NCBI GenBank assembly: GCA_963665275.2
Contig: CAXXIN010000013.1
Span: 192,001 to 256,000, forward strand
Direction of reading: 5' to 3'
Origin: Negativicutes bacterium
GTDB lineage: Bacteria > Bacillota > Negativicutes > UBA1444
Length of the DNA: 64,000 bases
Below are positions 34,066 to 42,004 of the stretch, piece by piece. The notes below the pieces were generated by a model. That model did no database searches and was not told where the DNA came from. It saw only the letters and a list, made by a program, of their open reading frames with translations. The position numbers and the translations under genes are program-made. Within the stretch, counting starts at the first letter, position 1. Every line of letters begins with the position of its first letter.

Positions 34066-34266
34066 ATGAAGGAATTATGGATTCGTCACGCCCATGAAGG
34101 CGATATCCTAAACATCTACCGCCTGCAGTTTTGCGAAGGCTGGCTGCTCGAGCGTAGCGAGATCGCCCCTGTATGCCCCGGCGGTCCATCCCCTGTTTCC
34201 GCAAAAAGCGGTCGAAGAAGAGCTGCTGCCGGCGTGAAGCTGCTGGAGGCAGGGGTGAATGGGTGA
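34066..34266 (+). pseudogene. Deleted paralog of 29320-29607 GNAT-like gene
   Basis: Same N-terminus (IYRLQFCEGW.LERSEIA) then 80-bp deletion at CGCCC microhomology causing a frameshift. Confidence 0.8.
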
Positions 34267-34656
34267 TCAACCGCCTATCAATTGCACCCATACTTGCCGG
34301 GTCCGGGGTCCGTCAAATTCGCAAAAGTATATCCCCTGCCACGTTCCCAGACATAACCGCCCGTCTACAATCGGAATGGTCATGGAGCAGCCAACAAGAG
34401 TGCTTTTTACATGAGCAGGGGAATTTCCCTCGCTATGGCGATACGGCAAGTCCGGCACCATCCGTTTCAATGCTGCCAACATATCCGTCACGACATCCGG
34501 GTCGGCGTTTTCATTGATCGTCACCCCAGCTGTGGTATGCGGCACAAAGATCTGGCATAGGCCGTTTTGGATTTTTCCTGCTTCCACGATCTGGCGGACT
34601 TGCTTTGTAATGTCGACAAAATCCTCCGCAGGTGTGTGCAATGTGATTTGTTCCAT
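34267..34656 (-). CDS. yjbQ: YjbQ / UPF0047 family protein
   Basis: [44 protein letters not shown]. Confidence 0.95.
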   Translation of the reverse strand: MEQITLHTPAEDFVDITKQVRQIVEAGKIQNGLCQIFVPHTTAGVTINENADPDVVTDMLAALKRMVPDLPYRHSEGNSPAHVKSTLVGCSMTIPIVDGRLCLGTWQGIYFCEFDGPRTRQVWVQLIGG

Positions 34657-34715: not shown

Positions 34716-35003
34716 TTACCCACCGAATTCTGCATTGCTGAAAACCTGCTGTTGCCAATATTCTCGGGCCCGATCAAGCGAACGGGCCGGATCGGCCATG
34801 TCCTGTATGCGTTCATAGCCAACCTTGGCCAGCCATTGTTTGAACGGTTCCGCTTTGGGCGATGGAATGGACTGGATAATTCGCAACAGCCCTTGAACAT
34901 TCGACGTATCGGTAAGTCGCATTTTCCCGTCCGGCGCTTTCATTTTGAACTGTCGACAAATTGTCGACAGTTCAACTCCATCTTCACTCTTTACCCGCAA
35001 TTT
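34716..35003 (-). pseudogene. BRO-N family (phage antirepressor-like) internal fragment
   Basis: STICRQFKMKAPDGKMRLTD...LLRIIQSIPSPKAEPFKQWLAKVGYERIQ; begins exactly at intron 3' end, truncated at both ends. Confidence 0.85.
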
Positions 35004-37384
35004 GTTACCCTAAGCCAGCAAGTCGCCCTACTGACTCGGCTTCAAAACCGGACTTGACAGTTTCCCGTCATCCGGCTCCTCAACTTTCCATACTTTCTGA
35101 AGAGCGGCTCCTATTTCGACAATGCTCATGTGCCAGTTGACTGATCTCCCGTTGTCTACCATTCTTACTTTTGCCGATTCGCTCCATGACGGCTACCGGT
35201 TCCGACATCCGGGTAAAGTACAAACCACATATCGCGCAGCATCCCTTTTGTTTCTTGAGAAGCCTTGCGACGTAATTGTCCAGTTCCGGATGCCGCCCCA
35301 TCCGAGTGGCCCAGTACAACCAGTCCCCATCATAAGGACTGCGTTTTCTGTCCACTTTGATGTGACGACGAATCGGTGTTTCACCGTGCAGGTACAGGGT
35401 CGCCCCCTCCGAAGAACGGAATTGCCATCGCTTGCCGTTATGATGCCAATACTTTCGGTAGATCCATTGCTTCGCTTTGTTTGGGTGTCTGCGTTTCATC
35501 CAGGCCCACAGCTTTTCCCACAGAACGTGCTGCAATTTGCTGAACATTCTAGATGAAGCCTGGGTGGAATAGTAGCGACACCAGCCCCGAATAATCGGGT
35601 TGAGTATGCGAATCAGTTTCTCCTGTGTACCGGCTTGGAGGCTGTCGATGACTTCTCCCATTCTATCTTGGTGGCGAAGGACACCATCCTTGCTGGGACG
35701 AATCAGTGGGAGAAACGTTAATCGCTCCTCACTGTTCGTATACCGTCGGGTATGGGTTTGCCCCGCTGGTACCTGTTGTATATGGAAGCCGAGGAAATCA
35801 AATCCCGGCGGCTGCCCGTTGATCGCTTCCAAGGTATGGACGATGCGGGTTTTGGTCGGACTTAATTCCAGACCCATCGTTGCCAGCCATTTCTCCGTAA
35901 CTTTGCGGAGATTATGGATGACTTCCAAGTCGCGATGCATGATCACAAAGTCGTCCGCGTACCGGATGACCCGAGGCCACCACGTCACGTCTTCTCCTGC
36001 AATCATACGGCGATAAGGGATTTGACGCTTGATCTCCTCTTCCAACCCATGCAGCGCGATGTTTGCCAAGAGCGGAGAAATCACCCCTCCTTGCGGCGTC
36101 CCTCGCTCTGCCCGCTGGAAGACGTCTCCTTCCATTACTCCAGCTTTTAACCACCTTCGCACGATGCGACGCACCCGTGGGGCTGCGTCCATCTTATTGA
36201 GTAGCGCGCGGTGGTCGATGCGGTCGAAACATTTTGCAATGTCCGCATCCAGTACATATTTCGGTTGATGAGCAATTTGTCCGAATATGTATTGAATCGC
36301 ATCATGGCAGCCCCTGCCGGGACGGAAGCCGTAGCTGTTTGGTTCAAACCGGGCTTCCCATTCCGGCTCCAGAGCCTGCTTGACCATCGCCTGTGCCGCC
36401 CGGTCTTGAAGGACCGGGATTCCCAGCGCTCGTCGCTCCGTTTTCCCCGGTTTGGGGATGTATATACGGCGCACGGCCTGTGGCACAGGAATCTGCTTGA
36501 GCTGTTTGGCCAACTGGATTTTGTCTTCCTGGCTGATGGAGGCTATCTTATCCACGCCGGGCGTTTTCTTCCCGGCGTTGTCTTGAGCCACGCGCCGCAC
36601 GGCGAGTAACCGGGCGGGCCACGAGGCGATAAGCAGCCGCTGCAGCCGTTGAACATTTCGCTTGTCGCCCTTTAGAGTCGCTTGGTAGATTCGTTTTTGA
36701 AGCTTGAAAACCGCCCGCTCGACTTGCGGCCAGCAAATGGTCTTCCATTCATCCATCGGCAGTTGTGCCGTGTCCATGACATATCCACTCCTACTATCGA
36801 AATACCATTTGGAAAACCGGGGCCACGTCTGCTTATCCGTCGGCTTTCCCGACGGCATTTGCTTCTTGGCCCATCCTGCCCTCCGTTGGCATACGGTTGA
36901 CTGCCTGCTCCGAAAAGAATCCGGAGAGCCAGCGGAGAGTTACCCCGTTCCTGAATATCGTTTTGCGTAAAGGGTAGAACCGCACTATCCACCGGGTTTC
37001 TGTGAGTGTGGAACCGGTCGCAACTCGAGACGCCGGCCTCGTATCCTTGTCCGTTTTGGACCAAGCCCTTCGGTCCGCGTTGGGGGCTTGTTCTGGTTGA
37101 CGGTGGTTCACGCATGCGTTCGCTTTCGCTGTTCTTGCTTTACCTGCTTGCGGGAGTTCCCGAGTCGGACTCCGGGTTACCCGCGTTTCGCCCATGCTGG
37201 CACCGTTCGGTTTGTCACTTCCGCACAGTGTGGGCGATGATGTTCCCTGTCCACCACAGGGGCTGGGAATTGAGTTTCCTCGCGCCCAGCTTCGATATTC
37301 AAGTTGTCGCTGAAGGCCTTCTGACCTTCACTGCCTCCCATCCCTTCAAACCCATGGCTTGAATTTCAGGAGAACGGGTCGCAC
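35004..37384 (-). mobile_element. Group II intron, apparently full length (IIB, chloroplast-like class by IEP)
   Basis: 5' GTGCGACCCG at 37384; domain V GAGCCGGATGACGGGAAACTGTCAAGTCCGGTT just after ORF stop; domain VI ending GTAAC at 35004; EBS1 loop CGAGUU (37022-37027) complements exon end AACTTG. Confidence 0.93.
35080..36777 (-). CDS. ltrA: Group II intron reverse transcriptase/maturase
   Basis: RT-0 (QDNAGKKTPGVD), SYGFRPGRGCHDAI, GTPQGGVISPLLANI, RYADDF, FDFLGF, X domain LNPIIRGW..YY; RBS AGGAG before MDTAQ. Confidence 0.96.
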   Translation of the reverse strand: MDTAQLPMDEWKTICWPQVERAVFKLQKRIYQATLKGDKRNVQRLQRLLIASWPARLLAVRRVAQDNAGKKTPGVDKIASISQEDKIQLAKQLKQIPVPQAVRRIYIPKPGKTERRALGIPVLQDRAAQAMVKQALEPEWEARFEPNSYGFRPGRGCHDAIQYIFGQIAHQPKYVLDADIAKCFDRIDHRALLNKMDAAPRVRRIVRRWLKAGVMEGDVFQRAERGTPQGGVISPLLANIALHGLEEEIKRQIPYRRMIAGEDVTWWPRVIRYADDFVIMHRDLEVIHNLRKVTEKWLATMGLELSPTKTRIVHTLEAINGQPPGFDFLGFHIQQVPAGQTHTRRYTNSEERLTFLPLIRPSKDGVLRHQDRMGEVIDSLQAGTQEKLIRILNPIIRGWCRYYSTQASSRMFSKLQHVLWEKLWAWMKRRHPNKAKQWIYRKYWHHNGKRWQFRSSEGATLYLHGETPIRRHIKVDRKRSPYDGDWLYWATRMGRHPELDNYVARLLKKQKGCCAICGLYFTRMSEPVAVMERIGKSKNGRQREISQLAHEHCRNRSRSSESMES

Positions 37385-37457
37385 CAAGTTTGATCAAGAG
37401 CCAAGCGGCCACTGCAATCGGGAATCCCACCTGGGATATGAGCTGCGCCCAGTCCAT
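37385..37457 (-). CDS. YvrJ-family small membrane protein, 5' exon (interrupted by intron)
   Basis: Own translation MDWAQLISQVGFPIAVAAWLLIKL matches YvrJ 'I.NVGFPIAV..YLL.R.E'; canonical position after DUF2922. Confidence 0.85.
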
Positions 37458-37461
37458 CGGA

Positions 37462-37674
37462 CTACGCCAGCACCGTGGTGTCCTGAGTCAGGATGATCGG
37501 ATCGACTGCCGAGATGAGATCTCCGCCGCTCGATGCGAACAGGTTTCGGGCGATGATCATGGTTTGTGTGGCAACGGCTTCCGCTTTGGTGAGGTTTTCT
37601 TTTGGATTGGCGATGAGGATGTTCACATCCTTGCCTGCCGCGTTCTTGAAGCCGAGTTTGGCTGTTCTAGTCAT
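37462..37674 (-). CDS. DUF2922 family protein
   Basis: L.F.NAAGK.VNI.IANPKENLT.......M.II..NLF...GGDL. Confidence 0.85.
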   Translation of the reverse strand: MTRTAKLGFKNAAGKDVNILIANPKENLTKAEAVATQTMIIARNLFASSGGDLISAVDPIILTQDTTVLA

Positions 37675-37710
37675 CGGTTGCTCCTCCTTTCGCCAGATTT
37701 TTTACCGGCG

Positions 37711-37935
37711 TTACTCGCCGATCAGGTTGGCGCTGTCGGTGCGAACGATCGCAACGAGCGATTTCGCCTGCAGTCCCGCGAGACTGGCGCCGACATCATA
37801 GATGTCCTGGTCGGTGGCGGTCGGTTTCACGTTGGAAAAGCTCAGCGTCTTGAAGACGTTGGCCCCGGTGGCGCTGACGCCATTCACGACTTTGATGCCG
37901 ATCCGGGATTCCTGGGGTGCTTTCGTAACAGCCAT
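37711..37935 (-). CDS. DUF1659 family protein
   Basis: G....G....KT.SFSNVKPTATDQDIY.V...L..LQ......I.R.D...L; RBS AGGAGG. Confidence 0.87.
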   Translation of the reverse strand: MAVTKAPQESRIGIKVVNGVSATGANVFKTLSFSNVKPTATDQDIYDVGASLAGLQAKSLVAIVRTDSANLIGE

Positions 37936-38047
37936 GAGGATCCCTCCTTCCTGGGTAACGCGGATTTCGCGCTCCCAAACATTCTATGAAAAACGGGACT
38001 CAGTGCCCCGATTTTCCGGTTGTGCCCACATCCCTCTTTTTTTTCCT

Positions 38048-38172
38048 TCCGGCGGTTCAGCAAGGTCCAGATACAAGGCACGGCGAGGCTTGTACTGCGC
38101 CGCGTACAGGTCGTACGCAAGCAGTGCAAACACAGTCGTAACGCCGTAGATGGGCCTTGCTGGGCCGCCGGA
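38048..38172. other. 125-nt long hairpin element
   Basis: 22-bp closing helix (3 G-U pairs on + strand) plus nested ACGGCG/CGCCGT, ACTGC/GCAGT and GCGTAC/GTACGC stems. Confidence 0.7.
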
Positions 38173-38177
38173 CAAAC

Positions 38178-38206
38178 AAAAAAGGACACGCCATGGCGAC
38201 GTGTCC
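38178..38206 (-). terminator. Intrinsic terminator
   Basis: GGACACGTC-GCCAT-GGCGTGTCC-TTTTTT on minus strand. Confidence 0.8.
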
Positions 38207-38327
38207 CGAAACGGGGATGGAGGTACTATATGGCAGCCGCAAGGTAATTAGTCCTGCGGGTGAGCCCGGTATCGTGCGCCCCATCCCCATAGAGCCTATG
38301 TAGTTTTCAAGGTTTGTTTTTGTCTAC
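38178..38327 (-). ncRNA. Candidate structured sRNA / leader RNA
   Basis: TATAAT at 38334-38339, boxA-like ACCTTGAAAACT, 12-bp outer stem, inner CCGCAGG/CCTTGCGG stem, ends in terminator. Confidence 0.55.
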
Positions 38328-38346
38328 AGTCTTATTATACGTCGGT

Positions 38347-38919
38347 TTATTCGTCCGTGAACGCCTCCGGCGGAAATTTTTTCAGTTCTTTTTCATAGTC
38401 ATCCACTGCCACCGCGATGGCGGCTCCCATCCGCCATTGCTCCAGCGAATCGGTGAGCATTTCTCGGTCCACCACATTGGATATAAAGCCTCCTTCGACG
38501 AGCACCGCCGGGCAGTCAGTCTCCCTCAGCACCTGGAAGCTCGCTTCCTTGACGCCCCGGTCGTCGGTAAGCATGGCGTCGGTCATGCAGAACTGGATGC
38601 AGCGGGCCAGCTGCCGCCCTTTGATACTGCCGGGATAGTAGTACGTTTCTGTCCCGTCGGCATCTAGGTTCTCCGAACTGTTACAGTGGATGCTGATGAA
38701 CAGGTCGGCGCCCCACTGGTTGGCCCGTTCCGCCCGAAAGGCCAGCCCATCGCTTTCGATGTGCTTGGATCGAGTCAGAACGACCGCGTGTCCGCGCAGC
38801 TTGAGCTCCGCTCTGGCAAAGCGGGCGATGTACCAGTTGATGTCGGCTTCATTGAAACCGCCGGCGCACGCCCCAGGTTCCACGGGGCCGCTATGCCCCG
38901 GATCAAGTACGATTTTCAT
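38347..38919 (-). CDS. N-acetylmuramoyl-L-alanine amidase (Amidase_3), no signal peptide
   Basis: LDPGH, E, RAERAN..GADLFISIHCNS, PAVLVEGGFISN. Confidence 0.95.
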   Translation of the reverse strand: MKIVLDPGHSGPVEPGACAGGFNEADINWYIARFARAELKLRGHAVVLTRSKHIESDGLAFRAERANQWGADLFISIHCNSSENLDADGTETYYYPGSIKGRQLARCIQFCMTDAMLTDDRGVKEASFQVLRETDCPAVLVEGGFISNVVDREMLTDSLEQWRMGAAIAVAVDDYEKELKKFPPEAFTDE

Positions 38920-38955
38920 AACACAACCTCCCGCATATTTTTTTATTCCTGTCGA

Positions 38956-39083
38956 TTTATCCATCGCACAGCCTGTAAGACCCCGCCCTCTTAGGCCTTC
39001 GGATAAACAGGCTGTAGTTCGAAGTAAATTCGACTAAGATTCAGGTGGCGTTAAAACACCATCTGAATCAAGTCTACATTTAT
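38956..39083. repeat. bcr1-like / IS200-605-derived non-autonomous palindromic element
   Basis: TTTAT at both ends; GTAAGACCCC..., ACAGCCTGT/ACAGGCTGT and GATTCAGGTGG/CCATCTGAATC inverted repeats; layout recalls B. cereus bcr1. Confidence 0.6.
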
Positions 39084-39605
39084 TTACCGGTTTCCCAGAT
39101 TTCCTGCCAAGGCGCGAATTACGGCGCCCATCCCGGATAGCGCGAGCACTTTCTCGTTTTCCTGGTTTTCCCGCCGGCGGCTGCGCATCGACTCATAGAG
39201 CCGTAGGAAATGAGCCCGGTCCGCTTCGGGATTTTCTCCCCTACAGAGCTGCGGCCAGCCAATCGACTGCGCCGCCCGCTTAACCGTATCGCAGCTGTAT
39301 TTCGGCGCCCTATACGGTCCGATCTCTTGAATCAACCTGCCAACTTCCTCCCAGGCTTCGGCGGCAGTCGGCAACTTTTCATTCCGTGGATCAAGTTCAT
39401 TCGCCGCCGCCACAACCTGGGCCACGCTGGGGAAGAACTGTGATTCGCGGCACACCTTGATGATCGCCGCCTTGGCTACGATGACATCGAGATCGGAGAG
39501 CATCAACGTCCAGGCCTCGACAATCGGCCGAGGATCCCGGGCCTGCATTGCAGGATAGGAGCTGGATGCCATCGCCACCAGTGCCAAGGTTTCCTGTCGG
39601 GTCAT
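39084..39605 (-). CDS. Phage replicative helicase loader/inhibitor (G39P-like)
   Basis: MTRQET..L.....SYP......W..ML.D.......A.......S.FFPSVA; TAAEAWEEV; RAHFLRLYE. Confidence 0.8.
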   Translation of the reverse strand: MTRQETLALVAMASSSYPAMQARDPRPIVEAWTLMLSDLDVIVAKAAIIKVCRESQFFPSVAQVVAAANELDPRNEKLPTAAEAWEEVGRLIQEIGPYRAPKYSCDTVKRAAQSIGWPQLCRGENPEADRAHFLRLYESMRSRRRENQENEKVLALSGMGAVIRALAGNLGNR

Positions 39606-40462
39606 GCCGGCGCGCCCTGACGCGCCATCTCAGCCAACTTGTCAATGAAAGTTTGCGGGCGCCCAGTCTGCGGCTGCGGACTGGCCCGTTCCTCCAGGTA
39701 GCGGGAAATCACCCAGGTCGTGATGACTTTATAATCATCCCTGTATTCGCTGCATTTCCCCGGATGATTGGTTTTGTAAGCATCCAAAAGAGCGATGATC
39801 CGCTCTGCCCCGATCGCGCCATGCTCCAGGCACAGCCGTTCCCGCTCGTTCGGTTTCAAATAGACGGTATCCGCCTGCCGTTCGACTCCTTCGCGCAGCA
39901 TGGACGGGCAGGCTGTCTCCCGGTTTCGTCTGTTGCTCTGTTTTGGTTTCTCTCCTTCCCTCTCCTTTGCTTTAGTCTCTTCTGCTTTCCTTTCCTTTAC
40001 TTTGTCGGTTTCTGTCGGAATAGTTGCCGTTTCGGCGGAGTTATTCGCACAGAAACTCGCCGAAGGTTCATTTTCCAACGGTTTTTGCATACCGAAACCC
40101 GGCTTTTGCGGGGCGGCGCTTTTACGCCGATCAAACACCGGCTCCAGATTGCTGACGAAATGATCGCTCCAAACGATTTTCTCCGCCCACAATTCGGCAT
40201 CAATGGCTTCAATCTCTGACAGTTTGTCCAGAATGGCGGTGGCGACGGTTTCTGTCACCCGAGCCTTGGACAGCAGGTATTCCCAATCCGCCGAGCTGTT
40301 GCAGTTGTATGAAAAATCATTGGAGTCCCCCAGCAGCTCCAGCAGCTTGAACCAAAATGCATATCCGTCATTACCCCAGCGGGCTTCCAGAATCGCGATA
40401 GTTTTGCCGGTATGGGTCACATGAGGAAAATAGTCCACCTTCACTTTTGTCGGTCGTGCCAT
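39602..40462 (-). CDS. Phage replication initiator, DUF4373/Lin1244-like N-terminus
   Basis: MARPTKVKVDYFPH......ILEARWGNDGYAFWFKLLE; K/E-rich linker; overlaps loader and Cro genes. Confidence 0.8.
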   Translation of the reverse strand: MARPTKVKVDYFPHVTHTGKTIAILEARWGNDGYAFWFKLLELLGDSNDFSYNCNSSADWEYLLSKARVTETVATAILDKLSEIEAIDAELWAEKIVWSDHFVSNLEPVFDRRKSAAPQKPGFGMQKPLENEPSASFCANNSAETATIPTETDKVKERKAEETKAKEREGEKPKQSNRRNRETACPSMLREGVERQADTVYLKPNERERLCLEHGAIGAERIIALLDAYKTNHPGKCSEYRDDYKVITTWVISRYLEERASPQPQTGRPQTFIDKLAEMARQGAPA

Positions 40463-40668
40463 GTTGCGCCTCCCGGATCTATCAAAAATACCTGTGCGAC
40501 AGTTTTTCCCAGCGCCGCCGAAATTTCCCGCATCGTCTCCGCCCCCGGATTCCGCCGCTGTCCTTTGGCCAGCATGGAAACGTATTGCGCGGTAGTTCCT
40601 GCTAGTTCCGCAATGTACCGGTAGGTCAGTCCTTGCCGCACACGCCAATAATCAATCCTATTCTTCAC
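40441..40668 (-). CDS. Cro-like XRE HTH protein
   Basis: KNRIDYWRVRQGLT...IAELAGTTAQYVSMLAKGQRRNPG; GTG start after GGAGGTG. Confidence 0.85.
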   Translation of the reverse strand: MKNRIDYWRVRQGLTYRYIAELAGTTAQYVSMLAKGQRRNPGAETMREISAALGKTVAQVFLIDPGGATWHDRQK

Positions 40669-40893
40669 ATGTTCACCTCCCAATTTATAACAATGAATTC
40701 ATACTATCACGTTGGTTTTGTTCAAGCAAAACCGCTAACCACAACATAATTACCCCTCACAATGTCACACAATCGACGATAATCAAATACGTTTCAAATT
40801 ATTAAAATTACGCCCATTTACTTGAAGATAAGTAAACTAATAGTTTATAATGTGATTGATCCCCTACTGGTAATAGTAAAGGAGAAGGTGAAC

Positions 40894-41289
40894 ATGTTCG
40901 GTGAAAACTTGAGACGAATTATGAAGAAAAAAAATATAACTTCTCGATATTTGGCAGCGAAAATCGGCGTCACGGAAACGTATATCAGCTATTTATTGAC
41001 CGGCAAAAAGAAACCCAGCTTAAAAATCGTGGAAACCCTGACCGAGTTTCTCGACGTGAGCGTTTCTGATTTGATCACGAAAAAAGAACCTCCGCCTAAT
41101 GTAAAGCTGGAGGCTCTAGCCCAAAAATATGAGTCGGTACTTTTGGCAATGGAATCGATGAGGCCTGAGCTTGTCGCGGAGTTGTCTTCTCGAATCGAGG
41201 CCGCTGCCTGTTTGTTCCCGCGCACGGATGTATCAGCGAAAACGGACCAGGGCGGCGCCGCCTATTTGCGCAAGAAAAAAGTTGGCTGA
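40894..41289 (+). CDS. XRE-family repressor (CI-like, no peptidase domain)
   Basis: MFGENLRRIMKKKNIT...LAAKIGVTETYISYLLTGKKKPS; divergent from Cro-like gene. Confidence 0.88.
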   Translation: MFGENLRRIMKKKNITSRYLAAKIGVTETYISYLLTGKKKPSLKIVETLTEFLDVSVSDLITKKEPPPNVKLEALAQKYESVLLAMESMRPELVAELSSRIEAAACLFPRTDVSAKTDQGGAAYLRKKKVG

Positions 41290-41305
41290 AAGGCTGGGGT
41301 GCTTA

Positions 41306-42004
41306 ATGAAGTTGTTTCAAATCAGATTTTGGGTTATAGCAGTATTGGTTGCCGCAACTTTCGCATTGGGTCTCATGGAACAAGCTCAAGCGGCTCCTTC
41401 GAAAGCGGGGCAAACCATTACTTTGGAAAAACTGCTCAAGCAAAGTGCCACCCCTGTATATTTTAAGATGCCGGATAGTTTTTTCTACAAATTGACCATC
41501 GAAGGCGCTCCGATTGCTACCAAAGCGCAATGTGTCGCTTATTTACGTAAAACGAATCCTTTCCCCCTTATCTCAGTAAGTGTTGAGAAACTGGTCGATA
41601 TTTATTACCGGGAAGGCCAGAAAGAAAATGTGCGGCCGGACTTGGCGTTTGCACAGGCATTGTTGGAAACAGGGCATTTCAGTTATGGCGGGGATGTTTA
41701 CCCCCAGCAAAACAATTATGCCGGGATTGGCGCTACCGGAAACAAAGTTAAGGGAGCCTATTTCCCAACTGCAGAAATCGGGGTGCGAAGTCAGATACAA
41801 CACCTTCTGGCTTACGCTTCGGAACGACGGCCCCGCGAAAAAATCGTTGATCCGCGCTATGAGCTGCTGGCCAAGATTCCGGCAAAGCATGGAAAAATAA
41901 AGACGTGGATGGCACTTGGGGGTAATTGGGCGGTCCCGGGGGCAAATTACGGCGTCAACATCTTTAAAATACATAGTCGAATTCTAAATATGCCTGTGCT
42001 ATGA
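41306..42004 (+). CDS. Exported glucosaminidase-domain protein
   Basis: Signal peptide; AFAQALLETG.F.YGG....QNNYAGIG; QIQHL.AYA; VDPRY. Confidence 0.85.
   Translation: MKLFQIRFWVIAVLVAATFALGLMEQAQAAPSKAGQTITLEKLLKQSATPVYFKMPDSFFYKLTIEGAPIATKAQCVAYLRKTNPFPLISVSVEKLVDIYYREGQKENVRPDLAFAQALLETGHFSYGGDVYPQQNNYAGIGATGNKVKGAYFPTAEIGVRSQIQHLLAYASERRPREKIVDPRYELLAKIPAKHGKIKTWMALGGNWAVPGANYGVNIFKIHSRILNMPVL

Follow-up and report, generated by a model that had tools for sequence, protein, structure and literature searches.

Phage satellites such as SaPI/PICI (Staphylococcus aureus pathogenicity islands and phage-inducible chromosomal islands) and P4-like elements are small islands, integrated at tRNA genes, that carry a divergent repressor/cro switch, their own replication initiator, a slot for defence genes and no virion genes. 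Lambda PR'-tR'/Q and the leaders of riboswitches share another layout, in which a promoter, a short structured transcript and an intrinsic terminator stand ahead of the regulated genes. We know of no phage satellites described in diderm Firmicutes. Here we analyse a window of 64,000 nucleotides (nt) from a Negativicutes bacterium (assembly GCA_963665275.2, contig CAXXIN010000013.1, positions 192,001 to 256,000), in which a phage-type switch and replication module is joined to an amidase gene, a structured spacer and genes for DUF1659, DUF2922 and YvrJ proteins. We estimate a probability of roughly 0.55 that this locus belongs, as a decayed and immobile copy, to a family of capsid-less, phage-derived islands in an uncultured, Sporomusaceae-like Negativicutes lineage, and that its amidase-to-YvrJ cassette worked in the way proposed below.

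The triad of DUF1659, DUF2922 and YvrJ is widespread in Firmicutes, and functional data on it are limited to two S. aureus preprints. According to these sources, the S. aureus DUF1659 and DUF2922 proteins, named SroA and SroB, are the main direct target of the extracytoplasmic function (ECF) sigma factor SigS, interact in a two-hybrid assay and affect the stability of sigS mRNA (bioRxiv 10.1101/2022.10.19.512975), and overexpression of SroA alters about 200 transcripts (PMC13192611); in Bacillus subtilis, SigO-RsoA is reported to transcribe yvrJ (PMC8103513). The initial annotation of the window held that DUF1659 and DUF2922 lack an established function, a statement that these reports of a SigS-controlled regulatory pair correct. 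The window's two proteins are SroA/SroB homologues, of a regulatory rather than a shell type.

Pfam and PHROGs profiles locate every gene named in the initial annotation where it had been placed, on the minus strand except for the repressor gene, which is on the plus strand (Table 1). The repressor, with its likely start at the ATG at 40895, is without an S24 peptidase domain, and a promoter-like site lies beside it at 40822-40851. The initiator frame is open to 40648 (open reading frame (ORF) 39602-40648), and its likely start at 40462 gives a 22-nt overlap with cro; the match to phrog_2562, a replication initiation protein family, begins at residue 63 (E 2.3e-26). The helicase loader gene overlaps the initiator gene by 4 nt and also matches a second helicase loader family, phrog_2289 (E 2.3e-9). 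The ratio of non-synonymous to synonymous substitution rates (dN/dS) is 0.19-0.21 for the initiator (against loci L043 and L046) and 0.13-0.21 for the loader (against four relatives). The window thus has both a divergent repressor/cro switch and its own replication module, which are features of satellite type.

The arrangement recurs. The source genome (G000) holds three copies each of DUF1659 and DUF2922, one on the 347-kb contig of the window (C13) and one each on contigs C7 and C14, and DUF1659 was matched in 45 of 61 genomes of the class. We fetched 20-kb stretches for 12 loci of the same genus, in genomes G005, G006, G007 and G010, and for eight loci of other families (L-numbers), called their ORFs with a codon-usage score and scanned these against protein families. 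At nine loci in genomes G006, G007 and G010 (type A), a repressor gene is followed by a cro or Xis-like gene, an initiator gene (DnaD-like or Lin1244_N), a G39P-like loader gene and a cassette consisting of amidase, leader RNA, DUF1659, DUF2922, YvrJ and an acidic protein, after which comes defence or toxin-antitoxin cargo; genes for an SbcC-like ATPase and a BroN/ANT protein sometimes stand between loader and amidase. One of these copies, L041, has exactly the layout of the window (XRE, a 76-residue protein, initiator, loader, amidase and the DUF genes). Three further loci (L042, L047 and L049; type B) carry a module of about 3.5 kb in the order helix-turn-helix (HTH), HTH_17, initiator, DnaC-like loader, leader, DUF1659, DUF2922, YvrJ, small acidic protein and amidase; in three species, such modules sit among polysaccharide genes. 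When one genome per species was searched by pattern, type A DUF1659 turned up at 14 loci in four metagenome-assembled genomes, which bear the titles Negativicutes, Sporomusaceae or uncultured Veillonellaceae.

Every gene of the cassette evolves under purifying selection, with median dN/dS values of 0.27 for DUF1659, 0.28 for DUF2922, 0.25 for the amidase, 0.055 for YvrJ and 0.125 for the acidic protein. The gene order therefore recurs, free of virion genes and under purifying selection, in the three copies of the source genome and at the 12 same-genus loci, a point that the initial annotation had proposed to check; because the order is conserved, does not continue into virion genes and evolves under constraint, neither of the outcomes that it had named as fatal to a satellite or domesticated element (continuation into prophage structural genes, or unconserved order with neutral evolution) was observed.

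The absence of integrase and virion genes noted in the initial annotation is borne out: the ORFs of the window's module have no Pfam virion match, and its contig has no match to a tyrosine integrase or serine recombinase. Terminase, portal, capsid and tail families matched none of the 249 ORFs at the 12 same-genus loci, and HK97 capsid, TerL ATPase and portal families had no match anywhere in G000, G007 (five copies of the cassette) or G012 (two copies). One alternative is that these loci are plain prophage debris, left by independent deletions of structural genes from temperate phages, with a gene order that is simply the usual early-then-lysis layout. The replication modules do vary between copies, as in phage mosaics, and the window and C7 copies have features of remnants (below). 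However, none of the 15 loci (the 12 of the same genus and the three of G000) keeps even a fragment that matches a virion family, and neither does the C14 island, which is bounded by attachment (att) repeats. True prophages are present in G010 and G005, with capsid, TerL and portal genes on contigs without a cassette copy (C10, C32, C34, C39 and C23), and they carry no DUF1659. The window's DUF1659 and DUF2922 and the intact YvrJ of C14 had no tblastn match in 50,697 phage records, and a pattern scan of IMG/VR found no relative of type A DUF1659; the pattern was made from an eight-sequence DUF1659 alignment (A4), the wide alignment of the family being too diverse for a pattern search. Together with the purifying selection on every cassette gene, these observations make debris an unlikely account of the family. 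The proposal of a satellite or domesticated element rather than debris is thus supported for the family, by recurrence and selection, and not for the window copy, which is degraded and has no recombinase on its contig.

What favours debris at the window itself is a Bro-N-like fragment, a truncated yvrJ, an inserted repeat and the lack of a recombinase on the contig. The initial annotation counted yvrJ as a gene, where the window has a stump of it, exon 1 only; its match of 29 bits falls just under the 29.5-bit cut-off because a group II intron interrupts the gene. A rearrangement linked to the intron, suspected from the outset to have removed whatever lay beyond yvrJ, is evident: yvrJ exon 2 and the acidic-protein gene, which follows yvrJ in the C7 copy, are gone and the Bro-N-like fragment, which has no other copy in G000 or in loci L009-L089, stands in their place. 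The fragment is probably the trace of the rearrangement in which exon 2, with whatever lay behind it, was lost. The junction between intron end and fragment is bridged by unitigs in metagenome runs X1 and X4, and a metagenome contig has a related intron flanked by yvrJ exon 2. Excision of the 2381-nt intron in silico gives, at C7, a 64-residue YvrJ colinear with the intact YvrJ of C14 and, in the window, a 30-residue product.

Comparison of the two intron-bearing copies suggests how this came about. Positions 248368-252313 of C7 and 35003-38946 of the window are 98.5% identical, and the flanks beyond are unrelated on both sides. There are no differences in the intron (0/2381 nt), yvrJ exon 1 (0/73) or DUF1659 (0/225), 3/213 in DUF2922, 19/414 in the leader region and 32/573 in the amidase gene (27 synonymous and five non-synonymous). 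Because identity falls with distance from the 5' end of the intron, from 100% to 94% in the amidase gene, and ends at its 3' end, the pattern points to a homing intron that co-converted its 5' flank and to a later loss of the 3' exon. C7 and C13 would then be older paralogous cassettes between which the intron has recently moved. No flanking direct repeats were found at the window copy or at the C7 copy, and the latter has no integrase nearby. In same-genus genomes the glgP orthologues reach no more than 44-46% identity, apart from one close match (85%) that begins at the edge of a contig, and no insertion boundary could be defined. Elsewhere, an ORF for a reverse transcriptase (RT) lies just downstream of the yvrJ position at a type B locus of G010 (L047:11261-13099), and a shorter RT is found between leader RNA and DUF1659 on contig C9 of the same genome (L045:8193-9602); group II introns seem to favour yvrJ and its vicinity as a home.

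The copy on C14 lies inside a 31.8-kb island between 45-nt repeats of the 3' end of a tRNA-Lys gene. From its integrase end the island encodes an integrase, an S24-type repressor, an Xis-like HTH protein, a DnaD-like protein, an ankyrin protein and a BroN/ANT antirepressor, and continues with the amidase, leader, DUF1659, DUF2922, an intact YvrJ, the acidic protein and a defence block; a further 16 ORFs scanned gave no match to a virion family. The defence block (C14:62244-82938) contains type I restriction-modification genes (M, S and R), PDC-S15, a Fic fragment, a CBASS cyclase with a four-transmembrane (4TM) effector, a Schlafen/AlbA_2 protein, AAA_21 ATPases and two ankyrin proteins that match PDC-M72A (L008:11245-L058:15939). 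With an integrase at a tRNA gene (in the C14 copy), a divergent repressor/cro pair, an initiator of their own, no virion genes and a slot for defence genes, these islands resemble PICI and P4-like satellites. They differ in that the ORFs scanned revealed no small terminase and no gene for capsid size or packaging interference, that most copies are without an integrase in the scanned range, and that they carry their own amidase-YvrJ cassette and RNA leader, which are not known as features of PICIs. Because no packaging or capsid-redirecting function was recognised, satellite status is putative. The islands nevertheless add a candidate family of capsid-less, defence-carrying, phage-like elements in diderm Firmicutes.

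Defence cargo across the copies includes type I restriction-modification, CBASS cyclase with 4TM effector, PDC-S15, QatAB, AbiEii and Fic genes, and a gene for a Tad2-like protein (Thoeris anti-defence) stands beside two type A copies that share a chromosomal context in G007 and G010 (L040:10976-11263 and L044:6935-7222). The cassette might accordingly be an abortive-infection effector, which lyses the infected cell early under the gate of the leader RNA and forms the core of a defence island rather than part of a satellite life cycle. Defence genes, a KAP NTPase among them, lie directly downstream in most copies, a Tad2-like gene adjoins two of them, and terminators in the leader suggest that expression is tightly gated. 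None of the cassette proteins, however, matches any of 5027 PADLOC models, and replication, repressor and integrase genes would be needless for a defence system; of the alternatives considered here we find this the least probable.

As noted in the initial annotation, the 411 nt between the amidase and DUF1659 genes (37936-38346) are heavily structured, with a folding energy of -167 kcal/mol against -134.8 kcal/mol for shuffled sequence (z -5.85; none of 100 shuffles was as good). What had been called structured RNAs turns out to comprise a promoter, the conserved leader RNA with its terminator and, in some copies, a palindromic insert. The -10 and -35 blocks of the promoter are kept in a 13-copy alignment upstream of DUF1659. 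The leader RNA, of about 95 nt, consists of a 9-bp stem (P1) enclosing a 3-bp stem and a 7-bp hairpin (P2), with invariant unpaired blocks. In a structural alignment of 10 sequences 96.4% of cells are paired and 18 of the 29 pairs have compensatory changes; none of 500 shuffles was as good, and slid controls were 42-52% paired. The palindromic insert is carried by the window, C14 and L043, and contigs from two metagenome runs jump from 38034 to 38180.

A covariance model built from 14 distinct type A copies (R1) missed type B leaders and leaders from outside the family under default filters; with filters off, it recovered the type B leaders and one from another family (L056) at 32.6-41 bits, and a second model (R2) also recovers such copies. 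R2 has 30 matches, spread over 12 of the 151 class genomes and three families: f1 (8/12), f11 (2/4) and f25 (1/8). At 22 of the 24 loci fetched around leader matches DUF1659 is directly downstream, the remaining two being contig edges, and at 18 an amidase gene lies within 1.5 kb. None of the 4227 Rfam families matches the leader at its gathering score; the best, ncr1241, reaches 24.8 bits against 60 and covers the terminator only. The leader is thus a previously undescribed structured RNA with the hallmarks of cis-regulation, namely a conserved, covarying structure, a terminator and a single downstream gene family, and it is a new motif for RNA family libraries. With its constitutive-looking promoter, short structured transcript and strong intrinsic terminator ahead of the regulated genes, its predicted layout is that of a terminator-based switch, as in riboswitch and lambda PR'-tR'/Q leaders, from which it differs in having no Rfam match and in being restricted to 12 of 151 class genomes in three families. 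The spacer between amidase and DUF1659 is also an insertion hotspot (L039:3503-4792, L043:10936-14734, L045:6897-9602 and window 38035-38179), where the inserts are, in the same order, a GGDEF gene; five transporter, regulator and deacetylase genes; a PIN toxin pair with an intron; and the 145-nt palindrome.

In other families of the class the triad has a different setting, following a sigma gene of the sigma70_r4 type in a conserved ABC-F ... RecD2 context. Among the 28 best-match class loci, DUF1659 is adjacent to DUF2922 in 27, as it is in the window, and has the sigma gene directly upstream in 17, the amidase gene in four and both in none. The four class sigmas had no tblastn match in G000 (E<0.01), and no sigma gene adjoins the window cassette, which has a sigma-70-type promoter instead of a dedicated sigma. 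In this locus family the triad thus appears in a second guise, joined with an amidase of endolysin type and apparently under the control of a structured RNA in place of a dedicated sigma factor. SigS-sroAB and SigO-RsoA-yvrJ share with it the protein families, the adjacency of DUF1659 and DUF2922, the YvrJ companion, tight gating and a pairing of the two DUF proteins, which was reported there from a two-hybrid assay and is weakly predicted here; the islands differ in the sigma-70-type promoter and terminator-bearing leader, the added amidase and acidic protein, and the phage-like context.

These comparisons allow for another explanation, that a stress-response regulatory module was captured by islands, with the RNA leader replacing a SigS- or SigO-type sigma and the amidase remodelling the wall as CwlD does. 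The sigma-linked loci with their ABC-F ... RecD2 context speak for it, as do the direct activation of sroAB by SigS, the effects of SroA on sigS mRNA stability and about 200 transcripts, and the transcription of yvrJ by SigO-RsoA, all as reported; the best NCBIfam match of the amidase is, moreover, CwlD. That match scores 105.8 bits against a cut-off of 221.55, and we rejected the identification. The amidase also accompanies only the RNA-leader form (four of the 28 loci, and none with sigma), in phage-like contexts; the sigma associated with the triad elsewhere is without a detectable homologue in G000; and the YvrJ of the islands is distinguished by an additional CxxC tail and, within the cassette, by the lowest dN/dS. 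We consider a captured stress module improbable.

The proteins themselves are consistent with a lytic function for part of the cassette. The amidase (ORF 38347-38964, likely start 38919) is without a signal peptide, since its catalytic domain begins at residue 3 from that start; it has tblastn matches in 133 phage records, and among the matches listed most are annotated as endolysin. Intact YvrJ of the island type has a single hydrophobic helix together with a charged helical tail and a CxxC motif. It weakly matches PHROG holin family 4898 (E 6.8e-6 to 6.7e-4), and YvrJ-like genes lie immediately before the endolysin gene in phi29-like Bacillus phages. The suggestion that YvrJ is holin-like therefore gains weak support as a prediction for the family, and the window's own yvrJ is truncated. 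The pairing of a small single-pass membrane protein with a signal-less muralytic enzyme resembles the holin-endolysin cassettes of phi29-like phages, and the type B order of YvrJ, small acidic protein and amidase, all behind the leader, resembles such a cassette too. Unlike in holin-endolysin cassettes, the amidase gene of type A copies, including the window, is upstream and outside the leader-controlled unit, two additional small soluble proteins are always present, no spanin was seen, and the holin activity of YvrJ is putative.

For DUF1659 and DUF2922, which the initial annotation had proposed as shell or filament subunits, nothing points to such a role; they match SroA/SroB, a pair reported as regulatory. 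Both are predicted to fold in a beta-beta-alpha-beta order (pLDDT 76 for DUF1659 and 85 for DUF2922), the models have no clear fold relative (best Foldseek E 0.022 and 0.31, respectively; best VIA Z 4.8), and profile comparison detects no sequence homology between the two families. Prediction of their complex, for which modelling had been suggested, scored 0.49 against 0.15 for the best control, which weakly supports a heterodimer; the mark applied to such scores is reached by 58 of 80 solved complexes and two of 110 mismatched pairs.

We propose the following mechanism for an intact island. The repressor/Cro switch would drive an early operon of cro, initiator, loader and amidase genes, while the late genes would stay silent, with transcription ending at the leader terminator. 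Read-through would be permitted by a signal, which might be a ligand, an antiterminator (possibly that of a helper phage) or the DUF1659/DUF2922 pair itself. The pair would then act on RNA or on regulation, as reported for SroA/SroB, and YvrJ would open the membrane to the cytoplasmic amidase, with cell lysis or release of material as the outcome. The induction, in-situ replication and release envisaged in the initial annotation are likewise hypothetical. In the window copy, a group II intron would have homed into yvrJ and co-converted the upstream flank, after which the 3' exon and everything downstream would have been replaced by the Bro-N-like fragment. In a bolder version, everything from the amidase through the leader RNA, DUF1659, DUF2922 and YvrJ to the acidic protein would work as one autonomous device for lysis or release under RNA control, and this device would characterise a new family of defence-carrying Negativicutes satellites; the SroA/SroB-like pair would bind the leader and serve as the antitermination switch. 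We hold this version to be doubtful; if true, it would give the triad its first mechanistic role, as an RNA-binding pair coupled to a membrane-lesion protein.

Several points weigh against a capsid-less island with an RNA-gated lysis cassette. An integrase with att repeats accompanies only one of the three copies in G000 (C14), and the ranges scanned at the other same-genus loci showed no integrase. No small terminase, capsid-redirecting or packaging gene was found among the ORFs scanned with Pfam and PHROG, several of which have no assignment, and cos and pac sites are not recognisable by such scans. The alignment used to count covariation in the leader was one of related sequences fitted to the model, and what we call a leader may instead be a small RNA gene in its own right, with another promoter behind it. 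The sequence link between YvrJ and phage holins is weak (tblastn E 0.2-0.6), the "holin" labels in phages being annotation by position, and no spanin was found although the hosts are diderm. The cassette could be regulatory rather than lytic, since at 17 of 28 class loci DUF1659-DUF2922(-YvrJ) stand on the chromosome like any other genes, preceded by a sigma gene. Finally, the linkage of replication genes and amidase in the window crosses a six-copy repeat beside a two-copy repeat, so that a mis-join of the assembly at the loader-amidase junction keeps a residual probability, though L041 has the same adjacency.

Table 1. Features of the locus in coordinates of the 64,000-nt window
Feature	Position	Strand	Evidence
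XRE/CI-type repressor	40822..41289	+	Pfam HTH_3 E 2.6e-12, Phage_CI_repr E 0.006; PHROG transcriptional repressor families
Cro-like HTH, divergent from repressor	40441..40683	-	Pfam HTH_3 E 2.8e-10; PHROG regulator families
Phage-type replication initiator (Lin1244_N/DUF4373)	39602..40462	-	Lin1244_N 29.3 bits (cut-off 25); phrog_2562
G39P-like helicase loader	39084..39605	-	Inhibitor_G39P 26.1 bits (cut-off 22); phrog_9804 E 6.4e-27
Repeated element of ~130 nt between loader and amidase	38955..39083	.	Genome copies with sharp ends
N-acetylmuramoyl-L-alanine amidase, catalytic domain only	38347..38919	-	Amidase_3 148.5 bits; phrog_435 endolysin E 8.6e-50
Sigma-70-type promoter at end of amidase gene, overlapping stop codon	38334..38361	-	TTCACG-16-TATAAT, 10/12 matches
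Conserved leader RNA with terminator T1	38174..38310	-	14 distinct copies aligned
Intrinsic terminator T1	38183-38207	-	11-bp stem
Optional palindromic insert of ~145 nt in leader, downstream of T1	38035..38179	-	3/13 aligned copies
Second terminator-like hairpin just upstream of DUF1659 ribosome-binding site	37994..38010	-	U-tract and next block conserved across copies
DUF1659 protein (SroA-like)	37711..37935	-	Pfam 83.2 bits
DUF2922 protein (SroB-like)	37462..37674	-	Pfam 57.3 bits
yvrJ exon 1, first 24 codons, transmembrane segment only	37385..37457	-	Pfam YvrJ profile positions 1-19 of 36
Group II intron, RT/maturase ORF 35080-36858	35004..37384	-	Rfam D5/D6 at 35004-35081; RVT_N, RVT_1, GIIM
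Bro-N-like gene fragment joined to intron 3' end	34716..35000	-	Pfam Bro-N profile 36-92 of 96; phrog_15286 positions 55-139 of 274

The repeat between loader and amidase is present as five full copies and one split copy in G000, the other sites being C1:90856, C1:100531/100650, C7:8488, C7:495799 and C13:269932, at about 6-fold contig depth. It folds into two strong hairpins (z -5.55), matches no Rfam family at gathering score and has the look of a small, non-autonomous mobile element. The conserved module does not include it: in L041, which is without it, loader and amidase genes are 24 nt apart by ORF coordinates.

Iteron-type tandem repeats were not found in the window's replication region. 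In the C7 copy, four 12-nt direct repeats (L007:12830-12888) lie between the genes for single-stranded DNA-binding protein (SSB) and initiator and form a likely replication origin.

On the other side of the repressor lies a gene for an exported glucosaminidase (41303-42004, plus strand), which matches the endolysin family phrog_8124 (E 3.7e-25) and also fits the C-terminal part of the model for the hormogonium morphoprotein TftA, at 103.8 bits against a cut-off of 500. Downstream of the element, part of the UPF0047 gene region (34160-34360) has a second copy, 85% identical and about 4.5 kb away (C13:221500-221721).

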